Under the pieces are notes generated by a model. The model made no database searches. It was given only the letters and a program-made list of their open reading frames with translations, and was not told the DNA's origin. From contig CAZAJQ010000002.1 in assembly GCA_964485795.1 (NCBI GenBank), positions 65,043 to 129,042 of the forward strand: a DNA stretch of 64,000 nucleotides, read 5' to 3'. The position numbers and the translations under genes are program-made. Below, in pieces: positions 28,520 to 38,928 of this stretch; positions within the stretch are counted from its first letter, which is position 1; each line of letters opens with the position of its first letter. This stretch comes from an uncultured Gammaproteobacteria bacterium. GTDB lineage: Bacteria; Patescibacteriota; Patescibacteriia; VMEV01; CAZAJQ01.

Positions 28520-28873
28520 TTATACATTGAGAAGGAGACTAAAGATGCCGGCTATAATCAGGATGATTTGGCAAATCATCGACGCAAAGACAAAAAAGTA
28601 CGTCAATAGCATATTCTTTCGAAAAAACAGCAATGCCATCACGGTATTGATCAAAAAAATGACGCTTCCCAAAGCCGGAATCACGTAGATGTAATACCAG
28701 TAATGCTGAAAATCAATATTGAAATAGATGTTGTAATGAAGAGGAATGGGATTTTCGGAAACCACGACTCGGCTCGATATGAAAAAATACAAAACCGCAT
28801 TTCCGATCAAAGCCATCAGTACCCCAAACAAAAGAGGCTTGGTGAAAAAAAAATCTTTGAACAATGATTTCAT
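28520..28873 (-). CDS. Hypothetical small membrane protein (117 aa)
   Basis: Three to four hydrophobic helices. Tightly packed between mraY and the cysteine desulfurase gene. Confidence 0.4.
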   Translation of the reverse strand: MKSLFKDFFFTKPLLFGVLMALIGNAVLYFFISSRVVVSENPIPLHYNIYFNIDFQHYWYYIYVIPALGSVIFLINTVMALLFFRKNMLLTYFFVFASMICQIILIIAGIFSLLLNV

Positions 28874-30069
28874 ATTTTTTTCATTCGCAATTCACGCACT
28901 TTTTTTTCAATCACGGAGATGCAGCGATTCACTTCCTGCAGCGTATTGTATTTTCCAAACGTGAATCGCAAAGAAGATGCGGCAATCTCGGCATCGGCTT
29001 TGATGGCCGTAAAAACGTGCGATACGGACAGTGAACCTGAGGCGCACGCCGATCCATGTGATGCGGATATTCCCTCATGATCAAGGGAAAGAAGCAAGGC
29101 TTCGGCGGTTATTCCCCTGAAACTCACATTGACGTTGCTTGGAACGCGATGCTTGAGACTGCCATTGATCACCGTTTCGGGAATGGTTTTTAATCCTGAA
29201 AGGAAGGCCTTTTGCAAACATATCATTTTTTCACGCCCATGTTCTTTTTCGTCCTTTTGCATCTCAACGGCTTTTCCCATTCCGACGATAAGGGGTGTGT
29301 TCTGCGTACCGGGTACAATGCCCCTTTCCTGCGAACCACCAAAGCATATGGGATCTACTTTCACACCTCGTCTGATGAAAAGCGCGCCGATGCCCTTTGG
29401 CCCGTAGATTTTGTGACCGCTGCATGAAAGCAGATCCACCGCCAATGCGTTCACATCGCATGGCAGCCATGCGATAGCCTGCGTGGCATCCGTATGAAAT
29501 ATGATCGGAATATCCCCGCCTTTCAAACGCTCTTTATTGAGATCTCCTATCGCCTTTCCTATCTCCGCAATCGGCTGAATGGTCCCGAGTTCATGGTTCA
29601 CATACATGACGGACACCAAAAAAGTTTGGGGTGAGATGTGCTTTACAAGCTCCGAAACGTCCACATGGCCGTCTTTTCGAACGCCGACAAAGGATACTTC
29701 AAACCCGTTTCGCTCCAGCGCAATGCATGTCTCAAATACCGAAGGATGCTCGATGGCGGTCGTCACGATATGAAGCTTCCCGTTTCCGTATTTTCTCCTT
29801 GCGAAACCCGCCGCTCCCTGCAAGGCGATATTATTGCTTTCCGTAGCGCCGCCCGTAAAAAAAATCTCACCGTAATGACATCCAAAAAAATTCGCTACCC
29901 TATCGCGACTCTTGTCAATCGCCGCAATGGCGGCCTGTCCATGGGCGTGAACGCTGCCGGGATTCCCGTAGTGGGTCAAAAAATACGGTCTCATGCTTTC
30001 CCATACGTCGCTGTCCAGCGCGGTACTGGCGGCATTGTCAAAATATATAGGGTGCTTTTGATATTTCAT
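28870..30069 (-). CDS. Cysteine desulfurase (NifS/IscS-like, class V aminotransferase)
   Basis: MKYQKHPIYFDNAASTALDSDVWESMRPYF...GNPGSVHAHGQ...SGHKIYGPKGIG...CASG. PLP-lysine and catalytic Cys-loop motifs. Confidence 0.85.
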   Translation of the reverse strand: MKYQKHPIYFDNAASTALDSDVWESMRPYFLTHYGNPGSVHAHGQAAIAAIDKSRDRVANFFGCHYGEIFFTGGATESNNIALQGAAGFARRKYGNGKLHIVTTAIEHPSVFETCIALERNGFEVSFVGVRKDGHVDVSELVKHISPQTFLVSVMYVNHELGTIQPIAEIGKAIGDLNKERLKGGDIPIIFHTDATQAIAWLPCDVNALAVDLLSCSGHKIYGPKGIGALFIRRGVKVDPICFGGSQERGIVPGTQNTPLIVGMGKAVEMQKDEKEHGREKMICLQKAFLSGLKTIPETVINGSLKHRVPSNVNVSFRGITAEALLLSLDHEGISASHGSACASGSLSVSHVFTAIKADAEIAASSLRFTFGKYNTLQEVNRCISVIEKKVRELRMKKI

Positions 30070-30150
30070 AACGCCGCACCGTATCATGAAAAATTACAAA
30101 AAACAAGGCTTTTCCTTTGTTTATTATTATAGCATACTGACCCGACCGGC

Positions 30151-31989
30151 TCACTTGGCATTGACGATCGCTTTGATTCTTCGGATTCCGGAGCCGCAGG
30201 ATTCTTCCTTGGTGATGCGAAACCCTTTCAATTCTCCCGTACGATTCACATGAGGACCGCCGCAAATCTCGACGGAAAAATCACCGACGGTATACACTTT
30301 CACTTTTTCTCCATATTTTCCCTCAAAAAGACCTATGGCACCGCGTTCCTTGGCTTCTTTCACGGTCATCTCCTCATAAGTCACCGACATATCTTTCGCG
30401 ATTTGCTCATCGACGATTTTTTCCACGGCGCGGATTTCGGCGTCCGTCATTTTTCTCTCAAAATTGAAATCAAATCGAAGGCGGTCTTTGGTGATATTGC
30501 TTCCTTTTTGATTCACATGGTTTCCCAGCACCTGTTTCAAGGCTCGATGAAGGAGATGGGTGGCGGTATGGAGTTTCGTAGTTTCGTCGCTGGCATCCGC
30601 GAGTCCGCCCTTGAACATGCCTGCTGACGCGGTTCGCGAAAGCTCCCGATGCTTCTTCATCTCCTCTTCAAAAGCCGCCCGGTCGATCGAAACGCCATTT
30701 TCCTTGGCCAATTCTTCGCTCATTTCATAGGGAAACCCATAGGTCGAGAAGAGAACAAAAGCTTCTCTTCCGGACAAACTCCCGGATTGAGCCGATTTTT
30801 CAAACATTTTCAATCCCGTGTCCAAAGTTTCACGAAATTTCCTCTCTTCGCGCTTCATTTCGTCGACGATAAATGCCTTGCGCGGTTCCAAATGCGCATA
30901 ATGGTTTGAAAAAAGTCCGATGATCGTATGCGCGATATCCGCAAGAAAATCCTCTTTCATGCCGATATGATCGCCAAACCGTATGGCTCGACGAATGAGT
31001 CGGCGAGTAAAATAGCCCTGCGCCATATTCGAAGGTACGGCACCGTCGGCGAGTATGAATACCGCGGCCTTGATATGATCGGCGATGATTTCAAAGGCGC
31101 GATATTCGTTTTCATACGATTTCCCCGAAAGTTCGGATATTCGCCTCATGATCGGCATGAAAAGCTCGGTGGTAAAGACATTGTCCTTGCCTTCATGAGC
31201 CATTGTGAGCCGCTCGAATCCTCCTCCAAAGTCGATGTTTTTGTTTTGCAATTCTTCCCAGCCATTTTCGGATTTTTTGTACTGCATAAATACCGAATTG
31301 CCGATCTCGATGAATCGTCCGCAATCGCAGTTTACATGACAGTATTTTCCGTACTTCGCATCATGTTCCTTGCCGGTATCATAAAACGTTTCGGAATCCG
31401 GCCCCCCCGGCTCCCCGACCGCATCTCCGCGCTGCCACCAATTTTTATCCACATAAGCAAATATCCTTTGATTGCCGCCAAAATGAATTTCCACTCCGGG
31501 TCCGTCTTCGCCTTTTCCGGACGTTTGGGGCCCCTCTTCGGCCTTGATGCCGTATTTCTGAAACACTTCCTTGAGAATTTCAATGGCTTGAGTATCCTTT
31601 GGTGCATCTTTGGATCCGCCGTACACGGTTTGATACAGTCGACCTGAATCGAGTTTCAACACTTCGACAAGAAATTCATACCACCATGAAAGCTGTTCTT
31701 TTTTGAAGTAATCACCCAGCGACCAATTTCCGAGCATTTCAAAAAGCGTATTATGACGATGATCGCCGACTTCCTCGATGTCTTTGGTGCGAAACGAAGG
31801 CTGGCTATTGCAAAGTCGCTTCCCTGCCGGATGTTTTTCGCCGAGCAAATAAGGAACCAGAGGAAACATCCCCGAATTCACAAAAAGCAAACTGGGATCG
31901 TTTTCAGGAATAAGTGAAGCCGCACTGATGATGGCATGGCCTTTGGATGCGAAAAAATCAAGATAGGATTTGCGAAGTTCAAAGGGGGA
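30151..31989 (-). CDS. alaS: Alanine--tRNA ligase, short form lacking the C-Ala domain
   Basis: MSPFELRKSYLDFFASKGH...LLFVNSGM...FEMLGNWSLGDYFK... (catalytic domain), then HTATHLLHRALKQVLG and CGGPHV (editing domain). The protein ends about 30 aa after the editing domain. Start set at the MSPFEL Met. The ORF-track start at 32142 adds 51 non-conserved residues. Confidence 0.9.
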   Translation of the reverse strand, partial: SPFELRKSYLDFFASKGHAIISAASLIPENDPSLLFVNSGMFPLVPYLLGEKHPAGKRLCNSQPSFRTKDIEEVGDHRHNTLFEMLGNWSLGDYFKKEQLSWWYEFLVEVLKLDSGRLYQTVYGGSKDAPKDTQAIEILKEVFQKYGIKAEEGPQTSGKGEDGPGVEIHFGGNQRIFAYVDKNWWQRGDAVGEPGGPDSETFYDTGKEHDAKYGKYCHVNCDCGRFIEIGNSVFMQYKKSENGWEELQNKNIDFGGGFERLTMAHEGKDNVFTTELFMPIMRRISELSGKSYENEYRAFEIIADHIKAAVFILADGAVPSNMAQGYFTRRLIRRAIRFGDHIGMKEDFLADIAHTIIGLFSNHYAHLEPRKAFIVDEMKREERKFRETLDTGLKMFEKSAQSGSLSGREAFVLFSTYGFPYEMSEELAKENGVSIDRAAFEEEMKKHRELSRTASAGMFKGGLADASDETTKLHTATHLLHRALKQVLGNHVNQKGSNITKDRLRFDFNFERKMTDAEIRAVEKIVDEQIAKDMSVTYEEMTVKEAKERGAIGLFEGKYGEKVKVYTVGDFSVEICGGPHVNRTGELKGFRITKEESCGSGIRRIKAIVNAK

Positions 31990-32025
31990 CATAGAAAAAA
32001 AATTAACGGCTTCACATGAAATTGT

Positions 32026-32054
32026 ACTATACAAAAAATCTCGTGGATAGACAA
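32026..32054 (-). promoter_or_regulatory. Candidate sigma70 promoter for alaS (TTGTCT, 17 nt spacer, TATAGT on minus strand)
   Basis: Reverse complement reads ttgtctatccacgagattttttgtatagt, about 35-65 nt upstream of the alaS ATG. Confidence 0.4.
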
Positions 32055-32074
32055 ATAAGCGTCGGCGGAAGGTT

Positions 32075-32135
32075 GAAAGGGAGTTGGGGGAGGTTGGGGT
32101 GGACACAGAGGTCCACGCCAACTCCACCCCAACTC
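32075..32135. repeat. GC-rich imperfect palindrome (GGTTGGGG / CCCCAAC-type arms) upstream of the alaS promoter
   Basis: gggagttgggggaggttggggtggac-acagag-gtccacgccaactccaccccaactcc. Arms about 24 nt with a few mismatches or indels. No U-run. Confidence 0.5.
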
Positions 32136-32201
32136 CACTCAAACCCCACCCAAGTCGACCTATTCCAGCGTAGCCTTCCGAGGATTTCTTTTTTTAACAA
32201 A

Positions 32202-32254: not shown

Positions 32255-33397
32255 TTATTTAAGCACTACAAACCACCCTACTTGAACGGAAATTTGGCCG
32301 GTGGCGTCAATCAAATTTCCGGAAAGATCAAAAATTTTATATTTCGTATTCCCGCCAAAAGTCAATCTGACGGGACCGCTGGTATTGTTATAGATAACAA
32401 CACATTTTAATCTCTCAATGTACTTGACCACCGTGGGAGTGGTGGCAACATCAAAACTCATGTCGAGAAAACTGCTCCCACTTTGAACCCCGGTACCCAT
32501 ATCCAGCCCGTAGTCATGCTTTGCTGGGTTCAACCTCAAAGCATTTTCTCTCGGCCCTGCCTTGGTCAGGGACAGGAAGATTTTATTCCAACCGAGGCTA
32601 TCGAGCCATAAAACGAGACCGATAAATGAAAGTTCCAAATCGTGCTTGGCCTGATCTGTTGTTGCACCGGTTTGATCTCCCAAAATTAAATAAGAATTTA
32701 ATTTTGGAAAGCCATTCTGAACTAAGGTGGAATAAAATTGCCCGGGATTTGAGTTTTGATCGCCGGATATAATCCCTGGATCATTCCTTAACCCGGTCTC
32801 AGTATAAGGCAGCCCCACGAGATTATTGAACCCTCCCCAAGACCCCCATGTTTGAAATCCGGCATTTTTGAATTCCTGCCAGAGATCTTTCAAATTTGGA
32901 ATCACTTCGTCCATCGTGTCCATAAACACTCCTTCCTGGTAAGCGAATCCAGGACGATGATTTTGAACATAACTGACGCAATACTGCCTCACGGATGAAT
33001 CTTCCAACTTTACCCTTACGATATCGGTTGGGATGCTAGGATTGGGAACAAGCTGGGCATCACTAAAGCCGAACTTGGTCATCAAATCCGTTTTTTTCCC
33101 CTTCACCGGTAAATAGATCAAAACTGTTCCCTGACCTAGTGGACGCAAGAAATCAATTTTGGATGTGGAATCAAAGAATGACACCCAGCCATTGATAAGC
33201 AAGAATGCATCAGATAATGCTTTGGCCTCATTATAAGAAATGAGGTGACCAAAAACTTTTATCTGATAATCCGCAGGGGGGGCAGCCAAGGGAGCGGAGG
33301 TGGTTTGAGTTTTGGGCTTATAGTTTTTCACCTCAATACCACAGCCAGTAAGTAACAGAGCCATAACACCAAGAACGAGCACAGCATTCATCTTCAT
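32255..33397 (-). CDS. Hypothetical lipoprotein (signal peptide plus lipobox LLTGC)
   Basis: MKMNAVLVLGVMALLLTGCGIEV... The mature part is rich in G/N/T/Q/S with no recognisable domain. Strong SD (TTAGGAGAtttctcATG) at the MKMNAV start. Confidence 0.55.
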   Translation of the reverse strand: MKMNAVLVLGVMALLLTGCGIEVKNYKPKTQTTSAPLAAPPADYQIKVFGHLISYNEAKALSDAFLLINGWVSFFDSTSKIDFLRPLGQGTVLIYLPVKGKKTDLMTKFGFSDAQLVPNPSIPTDIVRVKLEDSSVRQYCVSYVQNHRPGFAYQEGVFMDTMDEVIPNLKDLWQEFKNAGFQTWGSWGGFNNLVGLPYTETGLRNDPGIISGDQNSNPGQFYSTLVQNGFPKLNSYLILGDQTGATTDQAKHDLELSFIGLVLWLDSLGWNKIFLSLTKAGPRENALRLNPAKHDYGLDMGTGVQSGSSFLDMSFDVATTPTVVKYIERLKCVVIYNNTSGPVRLTFGGNTKYKIFDLSGNLIDATGQISVQVGWFVVLK

Positions 33398-33745
33398 GAG
33401 AAATCTCCTAATCAAAATAAAAAAATGTACGGTATTTACCATCACACCTCTTCAACCAATTTCCGCTGAAATTCGTCAAAAAAGGTGTGATGCCAAATAT
33501 TTCTTGAATGCGTATTTTTATACTATTTTTCATATTTTGTCAAATTTTCACGCTAATGAATAACCTCTGTTTCCGCTCTCTGTGATAATGACTCTACTCC
33601 CTCCTTCTTATTTTCAAACCTCTCAAAACGTCCCAACAAAGCCGCGGAGCTATATTTTTGAATCAACCTCCTTCACTATTTCGCATCATAGTAAATATAG
33701 GCGGCTTGCATTTCCTTTATATTAGCCAATTATCCTCTAATCTAG

Positions 33746-33821: not shown

Positions 33822-35162
33822 GTGGCGGAGGAAAGATTCATGGAAAGAAAAATCTTTTTGGCAATTTTTTTTATCTTTACAATTTTTTTGGGGAATGAAG
33901 TGCTAGCGTTTGGTCAGGAAGAATTTAAAGTTTATCTCAATCCGAAATTCATCAATGACCCTGATACCATTGATAGCTGGAGATCAATGTCTGATCTCTT
34001 GATCAAAGGTATTGACAGTCTGGATCAGGCGCTCAAGCAAGATCCATACGGACGCGGCATGTGGAGACTCGCATCTTTTGGACTCTTATGGTTGCATACG
34101 GAAGGGGAATCTACTTTGATACATGAGAGAGGGCACAGAAGGCTCCATGAGAATTATCTAGGAGTTCGAAAATTCCGTCTGGAAACCAAGGATAAGACAC
34201 ACTCGGTGTCTGCCAATTATCTCACGGAATATCTGTATGGCATCGGCGCCTATGGATATGAGACGCATTTTTATACCTCATTCATAACTGCTGACCAGCT
34301 CACTGAGTTCATGCAAAGATACTCAGATAAAGTAGGAGAAAACCCAGAGAAGCACTTTCAAACTACTGGATTATATTATGGCGATGGGCTAAATCGACAA
34401 CAATATGCTTCAGAAGAGTTAGAGGGGAGGTTCCTGCAAGAAAAAGTGCATCCGCTCCATGGCGTGTCATATTTTGATAACATGCGCAGCGCGCTCTTCT
34501 ATGGAGGAATTGAAAATCAAACTTTTGGGGATCCTTATAATTATATCAAGTGGGCTCGCTATGGTGACGTCCGAACATCAATGAAAGATTTGAAGTATCA
34601 TTCTCAGATACCAAAAATTCTTCTCTCGAGAACGAGTTGGGTGGCCTCACTTGGGGTAGTAGGATGGCTTCTCATCCCAAGAACCATAGAAGAAAACTGG
34701 AAAAAAATTCTCAACCTTGGTAGCTTTCTACTGCCAAAAAAAATGGGAAGAATTTTCATGCCTGACTTTGCGACATATCTCACCTCGCAGGGGGTAACAT
34801 GGAAAACGACCGTTCCATGGAAGTCACCAGTGGGAATATGGCAACTCTCGGCAGAGACCAACGCCATCTTCAACAATGTACGGGGGAAGGCCATCAGTGA
34901 AATTTCTCTGAAATATGATTCCGCTTATTTCCGAGACATGTTCCGGTGGTCAAATAAACTCGTGCTCAATCTCAACGGGAGAGGGTTCTGGAATGAGACT
35001 GAACTGGGACTGAAATTCCCCATCGGTCTCGAAGTCGGTGTCAAGTATAGCGTTGGATACGGCTTCACATACTGGAGAGAAGTAGGCGGAAATACGGCAT
35101 ACTTCCTCAAAGAGCGTGAGGTGAATTTCAAACTCTATCTCAAATACGATCTCAGTTTCTAA
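33822..35162 (+). CDS. Secreted hypothetical protein with HExxH motif and C-terminal beta-strand-rich region ending in Phe
   Basis: N-terminal signal peptide (IFLAIFFIFTIFLGNEVLAFGQ). HERGH matches the HExxH zincin motif. The C-terminus is alternating aromatic/hydrophobic (...VGYGFTYWREVGGNTAYFLKEREVNFKLYLKYDLSF). Strong SD. Confidence 0.55.
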   Translation: MAEERFMERKIFLAIFFIFTIFLGNEVLAFGQEEFKVYLNPKFINDPDTIDSWRSMSDLLIKGIDSLDQALKQDPYGRGMWRLASFGLLWLHTEGESTLIHERGHRRLHENYLGVRKFRLETKDKTHSVSANYLTEYLYGIGAYGYETHFYTSFITADQLTEFMQRYSDKVGENPEKHFQTTGLYYGDGLNRQQYASEELEGRFLQEKVHPLHGVSYFDNMRSALFYGGIENQTFGDPYNYIKWARYGDVRTSMKDLKYHSQIPKILLSRTSWVASLGVVGWLLIPRTIEENWKKILNLGSFLLPKKMGRIFMPDFATYLTSQGVTWKTTVPWKSPVGIWQLSAETNAIFNNVRGKAISEISLKYDSAYFRDMFRWSNKLVLNLNGRGFWNETELGLKFPIGLEVGVKYSVGYGFTYWREVGGNTAYFLKEREVNFKLYLKYDLSF

Positions 35163-35345: not shown

Positions 35346-36152
35346 ATGAAAAATTGGATTAATTTTATTGATATTTCCTGTGAGCTGCAGGAAATTGAAA
35401 AAGGAGAGAAAATGCAAAAAGAGGGGTATGATAACATGCAGCTCAAAAATCTAGATGCTGATCCAGAGATTATAGCCATGGAAAATGAAATCAAAAAAAT
35501 TAAGAAAAAAATTGATGAAGTGAAAAAGGAAAAAGCATGTCATGAAATAGCCCTTATGGAACGTGGAGCAGCGCTTCGGATACATGGAACTGAAACCATT
35601 GAAAAAAAATTCAGCGAGTTTATGAACCGCGCCGAAAACGGGGAGCTGGGAGTCGGGCATCTCGCCTTGGTGAAGAGCATTCCACCCTATTTTGCTCGAT
35701 TGCTGTGTATCAATGGAATGGAATTCGCTTGCGTCAATTCCAGCAAAATTCTCGGCCATCACATATATCCCAGTCTGTTCAAGGATTTCAATTCAGGGAA
35801 GGTAAAGGATATCTATATAAAGGTAAAATCAATCGACCATACAGAAATCAATCTCAATGACGCAAAAGCTCTCTTTGAGCGAATCGCCATGGAAATGATT
35901 CAGCTCGGAGAAATTTTGAATCCTTTCTGTAAAATCCCCGGCTTCGAAATCCCTATCGGGGTATGCTATTTGCTCTCGGAAAAAGGCGATTCTGACCGAG
36001 TCACCTATGGAGCGAGATTAAACTCAGGGAGGTATGCACTGGTGGATAAAAAATTTGAGCTGAATTATTTTTCCATCGATCCCTATGGCAAAATCCATGT
36101 CGAGGGAATGCCAGAAGATCACGCAGACGTAGAGAAGTTCTTTAAAAAGTAA
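35346..36152 (+). CDS. Hypothetical protein with N-terminal coiled-coil (268 aa)
   Basis: Lys/Glu-rich heptad-like N-terminus (EIKKIKKKIDEVKKEKA). No signal peptide. SD AGGGAG 5 nt before the ATG. Family unknown. Confidence 0.5.
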   Translation: MKNWINFIDISCELQEIEKGEKMQKEGYDNMQLKNLDADPEIIAMENEIKKIKKKIDEVKKEKACHEIALMERGAALRIHGTETIEKKFSEFMNRAENGELGVGHLALVKSIPPYFARLLCINGMEFACVNSSKILGHHIYPSLFKDFNSGKVKDIYIKVKSIDHTEINLNDAKALFERIAMEMIQLGEILNPFCKIPGFEIPIGVCYLLSEKGDSDRVTYGARLNSGRYALVDKKFELNYFSIDPYGKIHVEGMPEDHADVEKFFKK

Positions 36153-36173: not shown

Positions 36174-36210
36174 TAAAAAAACCGCGCATACAAAAACGCG
36201 GTTTTTTTTC
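36174..36210 (+). terminator. Rho-independent terminator (plus-strand gene 35346-36152)
   Basis: aaaaaaACCGCGcatacaaaaaCGCGGTtttttttc: perfect GC stem plus a T-run. Confidence 0.55.
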
Positions 36211-36221
36211 GTTTTAATGAC

Positions 36222-36256
36222 AAAAAAAGGGAGAGAAACATTTTCTCTCCCTAAAA
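36222..36256 (-). terminator. Rho-independent terminator of the Cys-rich precursor peptide gene
   Basis: Minus strand reads GGGAGAGAAAatgTTTCTCTCCCttttttt: 10-bp perfect stem, 3-nt loop and a 7-U run. Lies 6 nt after the peptide stop codon. Confidence 0.6.
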
Positions 36257-36261
36257 TTCAG

Positions 36262-36426
36262 TTATTTCCTACAATTGCAGTTGCAATTGCAAGCATTGTC
36301 TCCGCACTTTCCGGAACATTGACTCCCATTAGTTTTGGGGGTAATGCCAGATGGCTTCACTGCCGGGACAATCTTTGTAACAAGATGTTTCTCGAGCAGT
36401 ATTTTTTTCATCTGCGCAGTAGACAT
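36262..36426 (-). CDS. Cys-rich small peptide, candidate RiPP precursor (54 aa, six Cys in the C-terminal 18 residues)
   Basis: Manual translation of the minus strand: MSTAQMKKILLEKHLVTKIVPAVKPSGITPKTNGSQCSGKCGDNACNCNCNCRK*. SD GAAAGGAGG (36432-36440) sits 5 nt before the ATG. Dedicated terminator. The gene begins 73 nt downstream of a radical-SAM/SPASM gene on the same strand. Absent from the ORF track because it is under 60 aa. Confidence 0.6.
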   Translation of the reverse strand: MSTAQMKKILLEKHLVTKIVPAVKPSGITPKTNGSQCSGKCGDNACNCNCNCRK

Positions 36427-36431
36427 TGCTG

Positions 36432-36440
36432 CCTCCTTTC
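36432..36440 (-). promoter_or_regulatory. Shine-Dalgarno site (AAAGGAGG) of the precursor peptide gene
   Basis: Reverse complement of cctcctttc. 5 nt spacer to the ATG at 36426. Confidence 0.5.
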
Positions 36441-36499
36441 TGAGTAAAATATTTCAGAAACTTCTCACACTTCAGCCTTATTCGATAGGTATCACCTCC

Positions 36500-37537
36500 T
36501 TACATAGGAATAACTTCCCTAGGATCATATACAAACCATAATAAAGGACAACCGCCACCGCATTCATGATATTGTTTGCAATTCAGACAAGTTTCCGCAG
36601 GAATTCTCACGAGCATGTCATTAAACTCTCGTCTCTCAGAAGTATCCCAAAACGTTTGTAACCCTTCCGCATCACTGAAGTCTTCCCCGAGTTTACCGAG
36701 TGTAAAACCATGCATGGCGTTACAGGGGATAATCCTTCCCCGATCATCAAATATCACACCGCTCCGTTGCATAACATGACATCCGCTATAAATCTGATTC
36801 CTTTCTTTCAAAAGCTTTGAAAACTCCTGAGAAAAAAGACAGAAAGGGAGTGAAACATGTATCGAGAGCTTTTCACCAACTCTTTCATAGAGTCTCGGGT
36901 AAATCTCTTCAAATTTCTTTGCAGCGTTTTTCGGATCAATCATACACCCTTTTTCTGCCACTAAATTCGTATTAAAGGTCGTCGTGCAAAATTCCAACGA
37001 TACATGCGGAGCACCATTTTTACATGCTATATTCACCATTTCATCAAGATTCCCTATATTTAATTCGGTGATGGTAATAGATACGCTGAATCCAATGTTT
37101 GATTGCGATAAATTTTGGATTGCAGCTAGAACCTTGTGAAAATTATTCGCCTTTGTAAGACGCCTTTGCTGTTCTTCATTGCCAGCTTTCAAAGAGACAC
37201 TCACGTTTAATTTCAAACCATCAAATTTTTGAAGATATTTAGGGTCTGAAAAGCGAACACCATTACTGACCACCACAGGATAAAGATCCATATCATTGGC
37301 GCATGATATAAGCTCTGGTAGAGGTTTCCAGAGGGTTGGTTCACCACCCAAAATCTTTGGGCTCAAAATCCCCAAATCTCGAGAAATCTGCAAATATTGT
37401 TTCGCTTCATCAAACGTCATCTGAGAACTTGGAGTAAATCCTGTGGAACTCGCATAGCACCAACTGCATCGCAACTGACAAGCACGGTTAACGGTAATCC
37501 AGATACCAGAAATACCGTTATCTGTTTTCTGATCCAT
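36500..37537 (-). CDS. Radical SAM enzyme with C-terminal SPASM domain (putative peptide maturase, anSME-like architecture)
   Basis: CQLRCSWCY (CxxxCxxC) at residues 21-28. GGEPTL SAM-binding motif. C-terminal CHVMQ...IIPCNAMHG...ETCLNCKQYHECGGGCPLLW (Cx2Cx5Cx3C) is a SPASM/twitch auxiliary cluster signature. SD AAAGGAG 7 nt before the ATG. 345 aa. Confidence 0.85.
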   Translation of the reverse strand: MDQKTDNGISGIWITVNRACQLRCSWCYASSTGFTPSSQMTFDEAKQYLQISRDLGILSPKILGGEPTLWKPLPELISCANDMDLYPVVVSNGVRFSDPKYLQKFDGLKLNVSVSLKAGNEEQQRRLTKANNFHKVLAAIQNLSQSNIGFSVSITITELNIGNLDEMVNIACKNGAPHVSLEFCTTTFNTNLVAEKGCMIDPKNAAKKFEEIYPRLYERVGEKLSIHVSLPFCLFSQEFSKLLKERNQIYSGCHVMQRSGVIFDDRGRIIPCNAMHGFTLGKLGEDFSDAEGLQTFWDTSERREFNDMLVRIPAETCLNCKQYHECGGGCPLLWFVYDPREVIPM

Positions 37538-37602
37538 GATAAGGCTCCTTTATTAAAAAAATTCTTAAACAACTACCCATTAAGTATTCAACATATATAG
37601 CA

Positions 37603-38739
37603 CTATCCGGCTATATTCTTCAAGCTTTCCACGATCACCCCTCCCCCGATCAGCTTCTCGCCTTTATAGAAAACCGCCGACTGGCCGGGCATGACGGCAC
37701 GCTGGGGGCTATCGAATTCAATGCGATACCGCCCGTCTCCAAGCTTTTCCATCACGAACGCCGGCTCGCGATGATGATATCGGATGGAGCAGATCACCGA
37801 CATGGGAAGAATCGGCAGTTTTCCGTCAATCCAATTTGTGGATTCGCAAACCAAAGTTTTTGAAAACAGCTTGGGATCATTGCGATCATAGGAAACTTCA
37901 AGGATATTGTCATCGTAATTCAGACCAACCACATACATCGGCCCGATACCGCCAAGCTTGATTCCTTTTCTCTGTCCGAGCGTATAGAGCGGCAAACCGT
38001 CATGCTTTCCGACAACATGGCCATTGCTATCAAGAATATCTCCGGGTACGAGCACAAGATGACGCTTCAAAAATGGATACTGATCTTTTTCTTTGTAAAA
38101 ACACACTTCCTGACTGTCCGGCTTTTTTGCGGTCGGGAGGCAATAGTCTTCGGCCAGTTTGCGAACTTCGGTTTTTCTAAAATTGCCGAGGGGAAACAGG
38201 ATACGCTTCATCTGACTTTGCGTGAAATGATACATGAAATACGACTGATCTTTTTTCTCGTCAATGCCGCGAAGCAAAGCATGGCTCCCATCGGATTCCT
38301 TTCTGATGCGCGCATAATGACCGGTCGCGACGGCATCGCAGCCGAGCTCATCGGCACGATTGAGAAACTCGCCGAATTTCACGAATTGATTGCAATTCAG
38401 GCATGGATTGGGTGTCAATCCGCTTTGGTATTTGCGAATGAAGTCATCCACGACTTTTTCCTTGAACGTTTTTCGAAAATTAAGCGTGTAAAGCGGAAAC
38501 CCGTACGAATGAGCGATTCTTCGAGCCCCTTCATAGGCGTCCAGATCGCAACATTTATTTTGAGCCGAATCCATCGTCAAAGTGTCAAATTTCACATCCG
38601 CGGAGTCCAAGGATTCCTCCCAAAATTTCATAAAGATGCCGACCAAATCATGCCCTTTTCCAGCAAGCATCGCGGCAACGACGGAGCTGTCCACTCCGCC
38701 CGACATGGCCACGAGAATTTTCTTTCGAGCTCTTCCACT
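37603..38739 (-). CDS. mnmA: tRNA-specific 2-thiouridylase
   Basis: KILVAMSGGVDSSVVAAML PP-loop, catalytic Cys residues and the C-terminal beta-barrel. Start set at the MSGRARKK internal Met. Confidence 0.9.
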   Translation of the reverse strand, partial: SGRARKKILVAMSGGVDSSVVAAMLAGKGHDLVGIFMKFWEESLDSADVKFDTLTMDSAQNKCCDLDAYEGARRIAHSYGFPLYTLNFRKTFKEKVVDDFIRKYQSGLTPNPCLNCNQFVKFGEFLNRADELGCDAVATGHYARIRKESDGSHALLRGIDEKKDQSYFMYHFTQSQMKRILFPLGNFRKTEVRKLAEDYCLPTAKKPDSQEVCFYKEKDQYPFLKRHLVLVPGDILDSNGHVVGKHDGLPLYTLGQRKGIKLGGIGPMYVVGLNYDDNILEVSYDRNDPKLFSKTLVCESTNWIDGKLPILPMSVICSIRYHHREPAFVMEKLGDGRYRIEFDSPQRAVMPGQSAVFYKGEKLIGGGVIVESLKNIAG

Positions 38740-38928
38740 CATATATAAAAAATCGAAACTTTTGAGTTTCGCTTTTAAACAGCTTAAATTAGAATATTTG
38801 CGTTTGGAAGTCAACTTTTCTAGAGACAGTCTCAAGAATCTCGCGCAATGGTGAATTTAAAACCTCATAAGAGGCTGCATAACCCAAGACCGTTCGAGGT
38901 TTGCCATCGAGAAGTGCTTGCACACGCT

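Follow-up and report, generated by a model that had tools for sequence, protein, structure and literature searches.

The window analysed here, a 64-kb stretch of DNA, probably contains a minimal two-gene RiPP cassette in which a radical-SAM/SPASM maturase devoid of an RRE forms thioethers in the short Cys-rich precursor encoded by the following gene. The reading of the enzyme-peptide pair as a RiPP system is supported, and the pair, found again in hundreds of ultra-small bacteria, most of them uncultured, almost certainly represents a real, uncharacterised modified-peptide family. A search of the open-access literature found no paper describing this family, although absence is thereby not proven. 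The 54-aa peptide would be the substrate of the enzyme, and the enzyme most likely links the core Cys to residues close by through thioethers; the biological role, the acceptor residues and the direct binding of the leader proposed below are put forward as readings.

Organisation of the locus

The features of the locus are collected in Table 1. The original prediction, of a 345-aa radical SAM enzyme with a CxxxCxxC motif and a C-terminal SPASM Cx2Cx5Cx3C cluster, followed 73 nt downstream on the same strand by a six-Cys ORF with a strong Shine-Dalgarno site and its own hairpin and seven-U terminator, was borne out in each of these elements, including the peptide sequence as quoted. The small ORF translates as MSTAQMKKILLEKHLVTKIVPAVKPSGITPKTNGSQCSGKCGDNACNCNCNCRK, with Cys at positions 37, 41, 46, 48, 50 and 52, and the intergenic gap spans 36427-36499. 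The terminator comprises a stem-loop (36252-36228) and seven U (36227-36221), with a predicted RNA fold of -18.4 kcal/mol (z = -2.84 against shuffles). A putative promoter-like site within the rSAM gene, one of 8 such sites found by a consensus scan against 4.2 expected, could on its sequence give the peptide a separate transcript. Neither the Rfam nor the tRNA scan matched anything in the window, indicating that it holds no riboswitch or leader RNA and no taxonomic marker; the nearest homologues point to a CPR-like source.

Table 1. Coordinates of the cassette and adjoining features within the window
Feature	Position	Strand	Basis or remark
Radical-SAM/SPASM peptide maturase gene	36500..37537	-	ORF, 345 aa
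Shine-Dalgarno AAGGAG of rSAM gene	37545..37550	-	7 nt 5' of ATG; read from sequence
Promoter-like site TTGTCC-16-TATGAT, 9/12	36524..36551	-	consensus match only; inside rSAM 3' end
Shine-Dalgarno AAAGGAGG of peptide gene	36432..36439	-	5 nt 5' of ATG; read from sequence
Precursor peptide gene (putative), 54 aa + stop	36262..36426	-	ORF; family recurrence
Conserved leader motif T17-G27 (TKIVPAVKPSG)	36346..36378	-	signature T-x3-P-x3-P-x-G, alignments
Cys-rich core C37-K54, CSGKCGDNACNCNCNCRK	36265..36318	-	sequence; leader/core boundary approximate
Intrinsic terminator, 11-bp stem + 3-nt loop + U7	36221..36252	-	stem-loop and U run; RNA fold
Convergent 268-aa neighbour	35346-36152		without HExxH motif or family match

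The peptide gave no NCBIfam match, the SCIFF peptide model TIGR03973 included, and is absent from a collection of 15 billion public proteins, as are all of the family peptides that were looked up; a word-indexed search for homologues, run on the peptide by itself, came back empty because such peptides are not in that database. A 76-aa ORF on the opposite strand had been thought to mask the peptide gene in automated annotation. This was not demonstrated, since the antisense ORF is missing from the same collection, and the peptide is thus merely uncalled. Neighbouring genes in the window encode AlaRS, NifS/IscS, MnmA, RNase HI, RecJ and LepA. Neither MnmA nor NifS is conserved beside the rSAM gene in other loci, and the 268-aa neighbour is likewise not conserved next to rSAM homologues.

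The enzyme and its relation to curated families

The enzyme carries the radical SAM motif C20-x3-C24-x2-C27 and matches PF04055 well above the gathering score (64.6 bits against 29.5), placing it in the radical SAM superfamily. Its C-terminal part, C253-x13-G267-x4-C272 and then C317-x2-C320-x5-C326-x3-C330, follows the SPASM pattern (TIGR04085/PF13186; C-x9-15-G-x4-C, then C-x2-C-x5-C-x3-C). An alignment of 33 homologues keeps the nine cluster Cys without exception, and G267 in at least 90%. SPASM domains usually have a seventh Cys ligand downstream of the Cx3C; in none of the 33 family sequences is there a Cys beyond C330, and the Pfam SPASM model PF13186 reported no match to the enzyme even at E<=1, two observations that weigh against a thioether-forming cassette. 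The near-invariant C184 and C233 might serve as replacement cluster ligands. A confident AF2 model of the enzyme (pLDDT 92.3) has the SPASM fold; its Foldseek neighbours are SuiB (TMq 0.73) and anSME (0.67-0.69), both matched over the full length, and SkfB, and the epimerase EpeE is also among the matches. No N-terminal RRE was found, the first strand of the model beginning at residue 11 and the rSAM motif at residue 20, and the ORF list for the locus has no ORF between the enzyme and peptide genes that could encode a stand-alone RRE. Catalytic-proximity mapping of six positions from sequence landmarks (PMC10288494) suggested a mixed sacti/ranthi profile, with Y28 StsB-like and H254 CteB-like, and was not relied upon.

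In a profile scan the enzyme fell below every curated NCBIfam/Pfam subfamily threshold. The highest-scoring NCBIfam models were MoaA (71.3 bits against a cut-off of 325), PqqE (64.7 against 381), MftC (64.7 against 265) and NirJ2, with lower scores for StsB (NF045574; 59.9 against 625, a partial alignment of residues 9-169), PapB (NF047865; 53.8 against 340) and anSME (TIGR03942; 42.7 against 349). The PqqE, MftC, PapB and anSME models align over the full length, in the case of PapB from end to end (residues 9-331 on model positions 2-317 of 330), with scores far under their cut-offs. The SCIFF maturase model TIGR03974 is absent among the best 25 NCBIfam matches, all at most 71 bits, and alignment with CteB is restricted to the rSAM core (61 bits). 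No such subfamily model reached or approached its cut-off for the enzyme, its 33 + 10 homologues, 54 family peptides or 6 accessory proteins.

The identity of the leading models could suggest an anSME-type or cofactor-maturation enzyme, acting on sulfatase, PQQ, mycofactocin, molybdopterin or heme d1, that is followed by the small ORF through chance. We find this barely credible, as these models score 4 to 8 times under their curated cut-offs, the ORF downstream of the rSAM gene is kept family-wide, the peptide has neither a C/S-x-P-x-R sulfatase motif nor a C-terminal Val-Tyr, and there are no sulfatase, pqq or mft genes near the locus. Scores and gene context together effectively refute such an identity, which by the terms of the original prediction would have counted against it.

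A recurrent peptide family and its probable modification

The enzyme family is discrete, forming 555 clusters (E<=1e-30) in a search of 1.84 billion proteins, and occupies 252 loci in species genomes, mostly of Patescibacteria/CPR; cassette carriers include Moranbacteria, WWE3, Parcubacteria groups and Saccharibacteria-labelled MAGs, together with gut Firmicutes. One carrier, Pumilibacter muris CLA-AA-M08 (locus L060), is in culture. A precursor-like ORF was detected by HMM within 1 kb of the rSAM gene in 62 of 81 loci, in 49 of the 62 on the same strand and immediately 3' of that gene, and at least 7 further divergent small ORFs beside rSAM homologues were recognised by eye. Across the 81 loci, the density of small ORFs with CxCxC is 0.33 per kb up to 1 kb from the rSAM gene and 0.039 per kb beyond, an 8.4-fold difference. 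Each of the four closest relatives (L082, L083, L084 and L085) has a precursor-like ORF in the seemingly 'empty' gap after the rSAM gene. At one of these, L083, the neighbouring genes are phage-like; a phage origin as the general context was rejected, with a single full-length member among 2.9 million viral contigs.

Between the window and L082, the closest enzyme relative, the peptides are 50% and the enzymes 43% identical. Three pairs of related small ORFs gave dN/dS of 0.14-0.19 (a further pair, L027/L033, was left out as misaligned), and these values, with the peptide identity to L082, indicate that the small ORFs are coding. The leader is conserved, with P21 invariant and T17, P25 and G27 in at least 90% of a 13-sequence alignment, and the T-x3-P-x3-P-x-G motif is also visible across a 49-sequence alignment. 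The cores are hypervariable, with 3 to 27 Cys, although the C-terminal CxCxC (C48, C50 and C52 in the window) is at least 90% conserved among 54 family peptides. Of 380 intervals between Cys, 213 have the CxC spacing, which thereby dominates, its middle residue being Asp in 36% and Asn in 19%; Asp and Asn together make up 54% of these positions against 10% in leaders. A short ORF linked to the enzyme, with a conserved leader and a variable core across taxa, is the generic pattern of a RiPP pair. The predicted architecture of maturase and leader/core peptide, the co-occurrence of a small Cys-rich ORF with rSAM homologues and its conservation at the amino-acid level were all upheld by these comparisons, as was the statement that the core resembles neither SCIFF nor CXXX-repeat cores, since no such model matched any of the 54 peptides.

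In 32 of 37 CPR-labelled loci there is a third gene, for a small HExxH-x18-E protein with a predicted zincin fold; in most CPR loci it lies downstream of the peptide gene, and all 23 Firmicutes-labelled loci are without it. The protein is a candidate gluzincin metallopeptidase, a group in which HExxH is joined, on a zincin fold, by a Glu ligand about 18-20 residues further on. The prediction that no protease lies nearby holds for the window, where all 64 kb, searched by HMM in six frames, gave no HExxH partner, but is atypical of the family. The window likewise contains no exporter, and both absences speak against a cassette. Loss of a partner so widespread in CPR could mean that the two genes are a decaying or orphan remnant that no longer functions. 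This is very improbable: neither ORF is disrupted, each has a strong Shine-Dalgarno site and the terminator is clean, the cluster Cys and leader invariants are all retained, another locus (L001) repeats the same terminator-ended two-gene layout, and none of the Firmicutes-labelled loci has the HExxH gene.

The Cys-rich tail, the missing protease and exporter, and the sulfur and Fe-S housekeeping genes in the neighbourhood (MnmA, NifS/IscS) would also be compatible with a metal or Fe-S partner protein (an electron carrier, a chaperone or a metallothionein-like protein), the real substrate of the rSAM enzyme lying elsewhere. Such a protein would be expected to have a fixed number and spacing of Cys, whereas here the Cys-rich core varies and it is the non-Cys leader that is conserved. 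In several loci, L017 and L050 among them, one enzyme is moreover accompanied by at least two different precursors, most CPR loci have a zincin-fold gene after that for the peptide, and neither MnmA nor NifS travels with the family; we therefore judge this alternative improbable.

The same RiPP pair might instead undergo a different modification. SPASM enzymes also form C-C and C-O links and epimerise, and the enzyme might carry out one of these reactions or alter another side chain, the Cys then forming disulfides or a metal site. SuiB, the closest structure, is a C-C bond-forming enzyme, which counts against thioether formation, and EpeE matches too; the HMMs of the thioether-forming families PapB and StsB are far from their cut-offs, and the CxC-rich, Asp/Asn-rich tails look like metal-binding sequences. 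Cys, however, is the sole near-invariant feature of the core, the characterised SPASM systems with Cys-rich cores (SCIFF/CteB, PapB, NxxcB, StsB and QhpD) are all known to use it as a thioether donor (in part PMC10288494, PMC8939145), and the core has no conserved aromatic residue, Lys or Trp of the kind used in C-C cross-links. On balance a modification other than a thioether appears unlikely.

For the thioether-forming cassette we propose the following course. The N-terminal residues of the 54-aa product, about 36, would constitute a leader with the recognition motif T17-x3-P21-x3-P25-x-G27, and the last 18 residues, CSGKCGDNACNCNCNCRK, the core. The 345-aa maturase, having no RRE, would bind this leader directly; SAM would be reductively cleaved at the C20/C24/C27 cluster and a hydrogen atom taken from a core residue, after which the SPASM auxiliary clusters may help to couple that carbon to the sulfur of a core Cys. 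Repetition of this coupling would yield several intramolecular thioether cross-links, the acceptors most likely being the Asn (elsewhere in the family Asp) between the Cys. The enrichment of Asp and Asn could instead reflect solubility or metal binding rather than acceptor chemistry. SPASM enzymes are documented to use Asn, Asp and Thr to accept thioethers (PMC8939145), and StsB converts a CxCxC core to three sactionines (PMC10288494). In most CPR relatives the leader would probably be removed by the downstream zincin-fold protein; in the window genome an unlinked protease may do so, or the step may be absent.

A bolder reading, which we hold tentatively and consider possible but doubtful, is that of a new RiPP class, made mainly by genome-reduced CPR/Patescibacteria episymbionts, in which an RRE-less SPASM enzyme reads the T-x3-P-x3-P-x-G leader and converts the alternating Cys and Asx of CxCxCxC to an unbroken ladder of very short thioether rings, or makes of them a scaffold that binds metal. 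We know of no characterised RiPP with a ladder topology on an alternating Cys-Asx run. Were such a class real, its product could serve in attachment to a host, in competition or in acquiring metals. CPR/Patescibacteria have, as far as we are aware, tiny genomes and almost no recognised secondary metabolism, and the retention of a cassette of two or three genes in genomes so small implies a selected function. To define the product would be to gain a maturase family that recognises its leader in a new way, possibly a new cross-link topology on CxC repeats, and a handle on CPR-host chemistry. The precursors escape current annotation, and because it has no RRE, the maturase would likewise be missed by RRE-based mining such as that behind the compendium of 15,000 enzymes in PMC10288494. 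At only 1.3 kb, the cassette is directly testable by heterologous expression.

Relation to characterised systems

Among characterised maturases, anSME resembles the window enzyme in size (about 350-370 aa), in combining an rSAM core with SPASM, in having no RRE and in the direct binding of peptide that is proposed for the window enzyme, but its substrate is the sulfatase C/S-x-P-x-R sequence, converted to formylglycine, and it has no dedicated small precursor. The SCIFF/CteB system (TIGR03973/TIGR03974) similarly pairs a compact maturase with a six-Cys peptide whose role is not known, usually with neither protease nor transporter. CteB has an N-terminal RRE, and the SCIFF peptide, which is centred on Clostridia, shows high conservation and an unvarying arrangement of Cys; the window enzyme, in contrast, has no RRE, and no SCIFF model matches its peptide. 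The Haft-Basu in-silico systems (CXXX-repeat/CcpM, FibroRumin and Clo7bot), which were reportedly found by genome context and are said to be largely uncharacterised, also join rSAM/SPASM genes to short, repetitive Cys-rich peptides. Their repeat unit is CxxxC where that of the present family is CxC, and their enzyme models do not appear among the best matches, whilst FibroRuminTarg gave a marginal match in one of 54 family peptides (E = 0.04).

The StsB/StsA (BlaB/BlaA) sactipeptides of Streptomyces likewise combine a radical-SAM/SPASM-type enzyme with a CxCxC core, all three Cys of which become thioether donors in StsA (PMC10288494), and the StsB family, like that of the window enzyme, evaded family-based annotation. 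StsB is nevertheless larger (466 aa against 345) and works with the RRE protein StsC, and the acceptors in StsA lie in a downstream GxGxG, giving a hairpin, whereas the window core has CxCxCxC with no GxGxG and is almost empty after the CxC run. The SPASM rSAM ranthipeptide maturases PapB (freyrasin, Cys-x3-Asp), NxxcB (Asn-x-x-Cys) and QhpD (Cys to Asp/Glu) attach Cys sulfur to Asp, Asn or Glu at the beta or gamma carbon (in part PMC8939145). The family cores described here, in which Cys predominantly alternates with Asp or Asn, are akin to these substrates, and differ in their CxC spacing rather than Cx3D or NxxC, in their leader motif and in the HExxH partner.

The two-gene locus and its surroundings

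The original prediction of an rSAM (radical-SAM/SPASM) gene followed by a short six-Cys precursor-like peptide was borne out in full: the 54-aa sequence is exactly as first quoted, and the gene order, the 73-nt gap past the rSAM ORF and the hairpin with its seven U residues were all recovered on reading the window. The small ORF carries Cys at positions 37, 41, 46, 48, 50 and 52, is preceded by AAAGGAGG at 5 nt from its ATG, and is followed by an 11-bp stem with a 3-nt loop whose fold reaches -18.4 kcal/mol (z = -2.84). The next gene downstream is convergent with the peptide gene and has a terminator-like site of its own. The spacer between MnmA and the rSAM gene shows no sigma-70-like site on the coding strand, and the rSAM gene contains, at its 3' end, a 9-of-12 match; a scan of the window for tRNA and Rfam families gave zero matches.

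The neighbours are housekeeping genes (NifS/IscS-type cysteine desulfurase, short AlaRS, MnmA, RNase HI, RecJ and LepA); the rSAM gene starts 66 nt beyond the end of MnmA. Since neither cysteine desulfurase nor MnmA is a conserved neighbour at other family loci, the adjacency of these sulfur-handling genes is probably coincidental. The three sizeable ORFs between 32255 and 36152 are likewise not conserved beside homologous rSAM genes.

Features of the window and of related loci (L numbers denote loci of rSAM homologues)
Feature	Location	Strand	Remarks
Sulfur-handling housekeeping genes	window 28870-32142 and 37603-38835		NifS/IscS-type cysteine desulfurase; tRNA 2-thiouridylase MnmA; flank the locus
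Predicted lipoprotein, 396 aa	window 32255-33445	-	no NCBIfam match
446-aa protein	window 33822-35162	+	N-terminal hydrophobic segment; no NCBIfam match
268-aa protein	window 35346-36152	+	no NCBIfam or Pfam match
Back-to-back terminators	window 36185-36252		between convergent 268-aa and peptide genes
GC hairpin	window 36185-36200		first of the two; flanked by A- and T-runs; could act both ways
Peptide-gene hairpin	window 36252-36228		second of the two
54-aa peptide ORF	window 36262-36426	-
345-aa rSAM ORF	window 36500-37537	-
L082 peptide	gap after rSAM		MMTTQSFLAKRKSTGVVPAERPKGACGNTPGANCSNCVGQCNCKCAPQCNCNCR
L083 peptide	gap after rSAM		MSHAMSMLSQRNATKIVPSARPEGF...QCNCNC...CKCRK
L085 peptide	gap after rSAM		...CENCTGQCNCNCAPACNCS
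Erysipelotrichaceae loci	L017:100-1527; L050:3779-5195		two different CxC-rich precursors, one each side of rSAM
Eubacteriales/Clostridia MAG loci	L047:5031-6125; L048		364-aa protein directly after rSAM, no short peptide
Same-organism Logan contig end	L081:1290-1314		Nextera adaptor-like sequence (CTGTCTCTTATACACA)
Cassette on 42-kb Logan SRR22388065 contig	L083:1-9026		rSAM, peptide with own hairpin terminator, HExxH gene
Pumilibacter muris CLA-AA-M08 (L060)	NZ_CALPCN010000002.1:279286-288275		precursor with 15 Cys (…CDCACVCECDCDCHCVCECDDCDCYC…)

Conservation of the enzyme-peptide pair

A one-genome-per-species scan returned 252 relatives of the enzyme, of which the best 80, together with the window, make up the 81 loci analysed here; by record label the 80 comprise 37 from CPR/Patescibacteria, 23 from Firmicutes and 20 from other groups or without a label (Myxococcales and Nitrospirota among them). 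Cys-rich small ORFs lie directly after the rSAM gene at most of the 80 loci, as in the window. A precursor HMM built from 54 small Cys-rich peptides matched within 1 kb of the rSAM gene in 62 of the 81 loci (49 downstream and nine upstream on the same strand, four downstream on the opposite strand), a count that is partly circular as the model was trained on these same peptides; only two matches lay further away. The density of CxCxC-containing ORFs is a model-free measure that avoids this circularity: up to 1 kb from the enzyme it was 0.33 per kb, versus 0.039 per kb elsewhere. At least seven loci (e.g. L008, L056 and L077) hold divergent precursors missed by the HMM.

Among the closest enzyme relatives, the rSAM gene is followed by a gap of 260-340 nt, empty according to gene callers, that in each case encodes a peptide; that of L082 is 50% identical to the window peptide, the enzymes being 43% identical. 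Across 13 aligned peptides the leader residue P21 never varies, and T17, P25 and G27 each occur in 90% or more; that the small ORFs code for protein is supported by dN/dS values of 0.19, 0.17 and 0.14 in three related pairs. The linked small ORFs, the conserved leader and these ratios support the interpretation first proposed: the two genes form a conserved maturase-precursor pair with leader/core architecture, and are very probably a RiPP maturase and its precursor.

None of the 54 peptides matched an NCBIfam or Pfam family, and the exact window, L082 and L085 sequences are absent from a collection of 15 billion proteins, as is the antisense 76-aa ORF. A Logan contig from the same organism is the only place where the peptide gene was called, and there the end of the contig cuts the gene short; because that end is adaptor-like, the called 56-residue product is chimeric at its C-terminus (…CNCNCTVSYTH). 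The 364-aa protein of L047 and L048 has a CxC-rich stretch of ~90 N-terminal residues (…NCNCDCDCRCNCDC…CDCNCVCDC…) joined to a larger C-terminal domain, and could represent a precursor combined with a further module.

Clustering of all neighbours yielded one recurrent partner of 120-240 aa, whose gene comes right behind that of the precursor, on the same strand; it comprises three BLAST clusters connected by HMM. This HExxH partner occurs in 32/37 CPR-labelled, 0/23 Firmicutes-labelled and 9/20 other loci, and its invariant residues (G104, G107, Y109, H132, E133, H136, K154 and E155) give the signature HExxH-x18-E. It matches no Pfam or NCBIfam family, and all 39 of its database relatives are annotated 'hypothetical protein'. 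A putative leader peptidase is the more likely, though not the sole possible, role, since some HExxH proteins of RiPP clusters act as oxygenases and not as peptidases (PMC12636437). A six-frame HMM search of the whole 64-kb window found no such gene, so that the window represents a minimal two-gene form. Locus L001, whose enzyme is 41% identical, shares this layout, with a hairpin terminator and then convergent genes; at L038 a convergent ABC exporter stands at that place instead.

The enzyme and its family

The enzyme contains the cluster motifs C20-x3-C24-x2-C27, C253-x13-G267-x4-C272 and C317-x2-C320-x5-C326-x3-C330. Pfam recognises the radical-SAM core only (PF04055, 64.6 bits), its SPASM model giving no match even at E<=1, and the 72 NCBIfam matches are weak, with best scores (bits/cut-off) for MoaA (71/325), PqqE (65/381), MftC (65/265), NirJ2 (62/500), StsB (60/625), PapB (54/340) and anSME (43/349). 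No curated cut-off was approached by any of 33 aligned homologues or of ten more Firmicutes, Myxococcales and Bacteroidota members. All 33 aligned sequences keep the three rSAM Cys and the six Cys of the SPASM motifs, and at least 90% of them keep C184 and C233; because none has a Cys beyond C330, they lack the customary final SPASM ligand. In the confident AlphaFold2 model (pLDDT 92.3, pTM 0.90) the first strand begins at residue 11, too early for an RRE to fit at the N-terminus. Foldseek against the PDB returned SuiB (TMq 0.73), anSME (0.67-0.69) and SkfB (0.64), and a profile search of PDB sequences returned SuiB, MoaA, SkfB, CteB, PqqE and anSME, each scoring 48-72 bits. The SPASM enzyme is intact and of the three-cluster type; family scores, conserved Cys and fold together therefore identify an RRE-less rSAM/SPASM protein of anSME-like architecture, outside all described subfamilies.

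A word-indexed search gave 131 homologues (best non-self 43% identical), those named being mostly from Patescibacteria, Moraniibacteriota, WWE3 and Pacebacteria. Among 1.84 billion representatives, profile scanning picked out 555 proteins at E<=1e-30 versus 25,950 at 1e-10; the enzymes form a discrete family, with roughly 500 clusters when grouped at 50% identity. Almost all members measure 335-360 aa. A few have further domains attached, and P0115, P0217, P0233, P0235, P0250 and P0254 (560-680 aa) carry an additional domain of ~220-330 residues, C-terminal in most and N-terminal in P0254.

The L083 cassette lies amid phage-like genes (Acb2/Tad1 hairpin, RNase H, HAD-PNKP, Metallophos, Phage_ProQ_C-like and Band_7), which suggests that at least one family cassette is carried on a phage or mobile element. 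The sole full-length member in a viral-contig scan was L087 (peptide MYPTPRLRTTGIPQEPLIGV...CQCADCDTNDC). Pumilibacter muris is a cultured mouse-gut isolate, making its product experimentally accessible.

Proposed chemistry and comparison with known systems

We propose that the T-x3-P-x3-P-x-G leader would be bound directly by the enzyme, as with RRE-less or RRE-bypassing SPASM enzymes, and that the core Cys would then be cross-linked. The SuiB leader is bound outside its RRE. With the customary Aux-cluster ligands missing, an iron site could stay open to a substrate Cys, as it does in CteB. Cys is the sole near-invariant core feature of the family peptides, CxC is the dominant spacing (213/380 intervals), and its x is Asp in 36% and Asn in 19%, versus 10% for both together in leaders. 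Documented acceptors of SPASM thioether synthases are Asn, Asp and Thr (PMC8939145), and StsB forms three sactionines on a CxCxC core (PMC10288494). These observations support the thioether reading, and the full statement, maturase, precursor and thioether chemistry together, appears reasonably probable. Catalytic-proximity positions, tentatively placed by sequence landmarks only, are Y28 (as in StsB) and H254-V255, the latter equivalent to H-Q in CteB and K-L in StsB (PMC10288494).

An rSAM gene beside a Cys-rich peptide is a familiar theme, and many such families still await characterisation. The present family, however, occurs widely in genome-reduced CPR bacteria, escapes annotation, works independently of an RRE and is compact enough for direct testing. 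Every test of family membership that could be run was negative, no description was found in the open-access literature, and RRE-based compendia would exclude the family by design (PMC10288494). It is an uncurated rSAM-RiPP family and not a categorically new system: its working principle resembles that of the SCIFF/CteB, PapB, NxxcB, QhpD and StsB systems and its build that of anSME, while it is set apart by the lack of an RRE and by a new leader signature, by a core of CxC repeats right at the C-terminus, by an HExxH partner without described function in CPR, and by a CPR-centred distribution.
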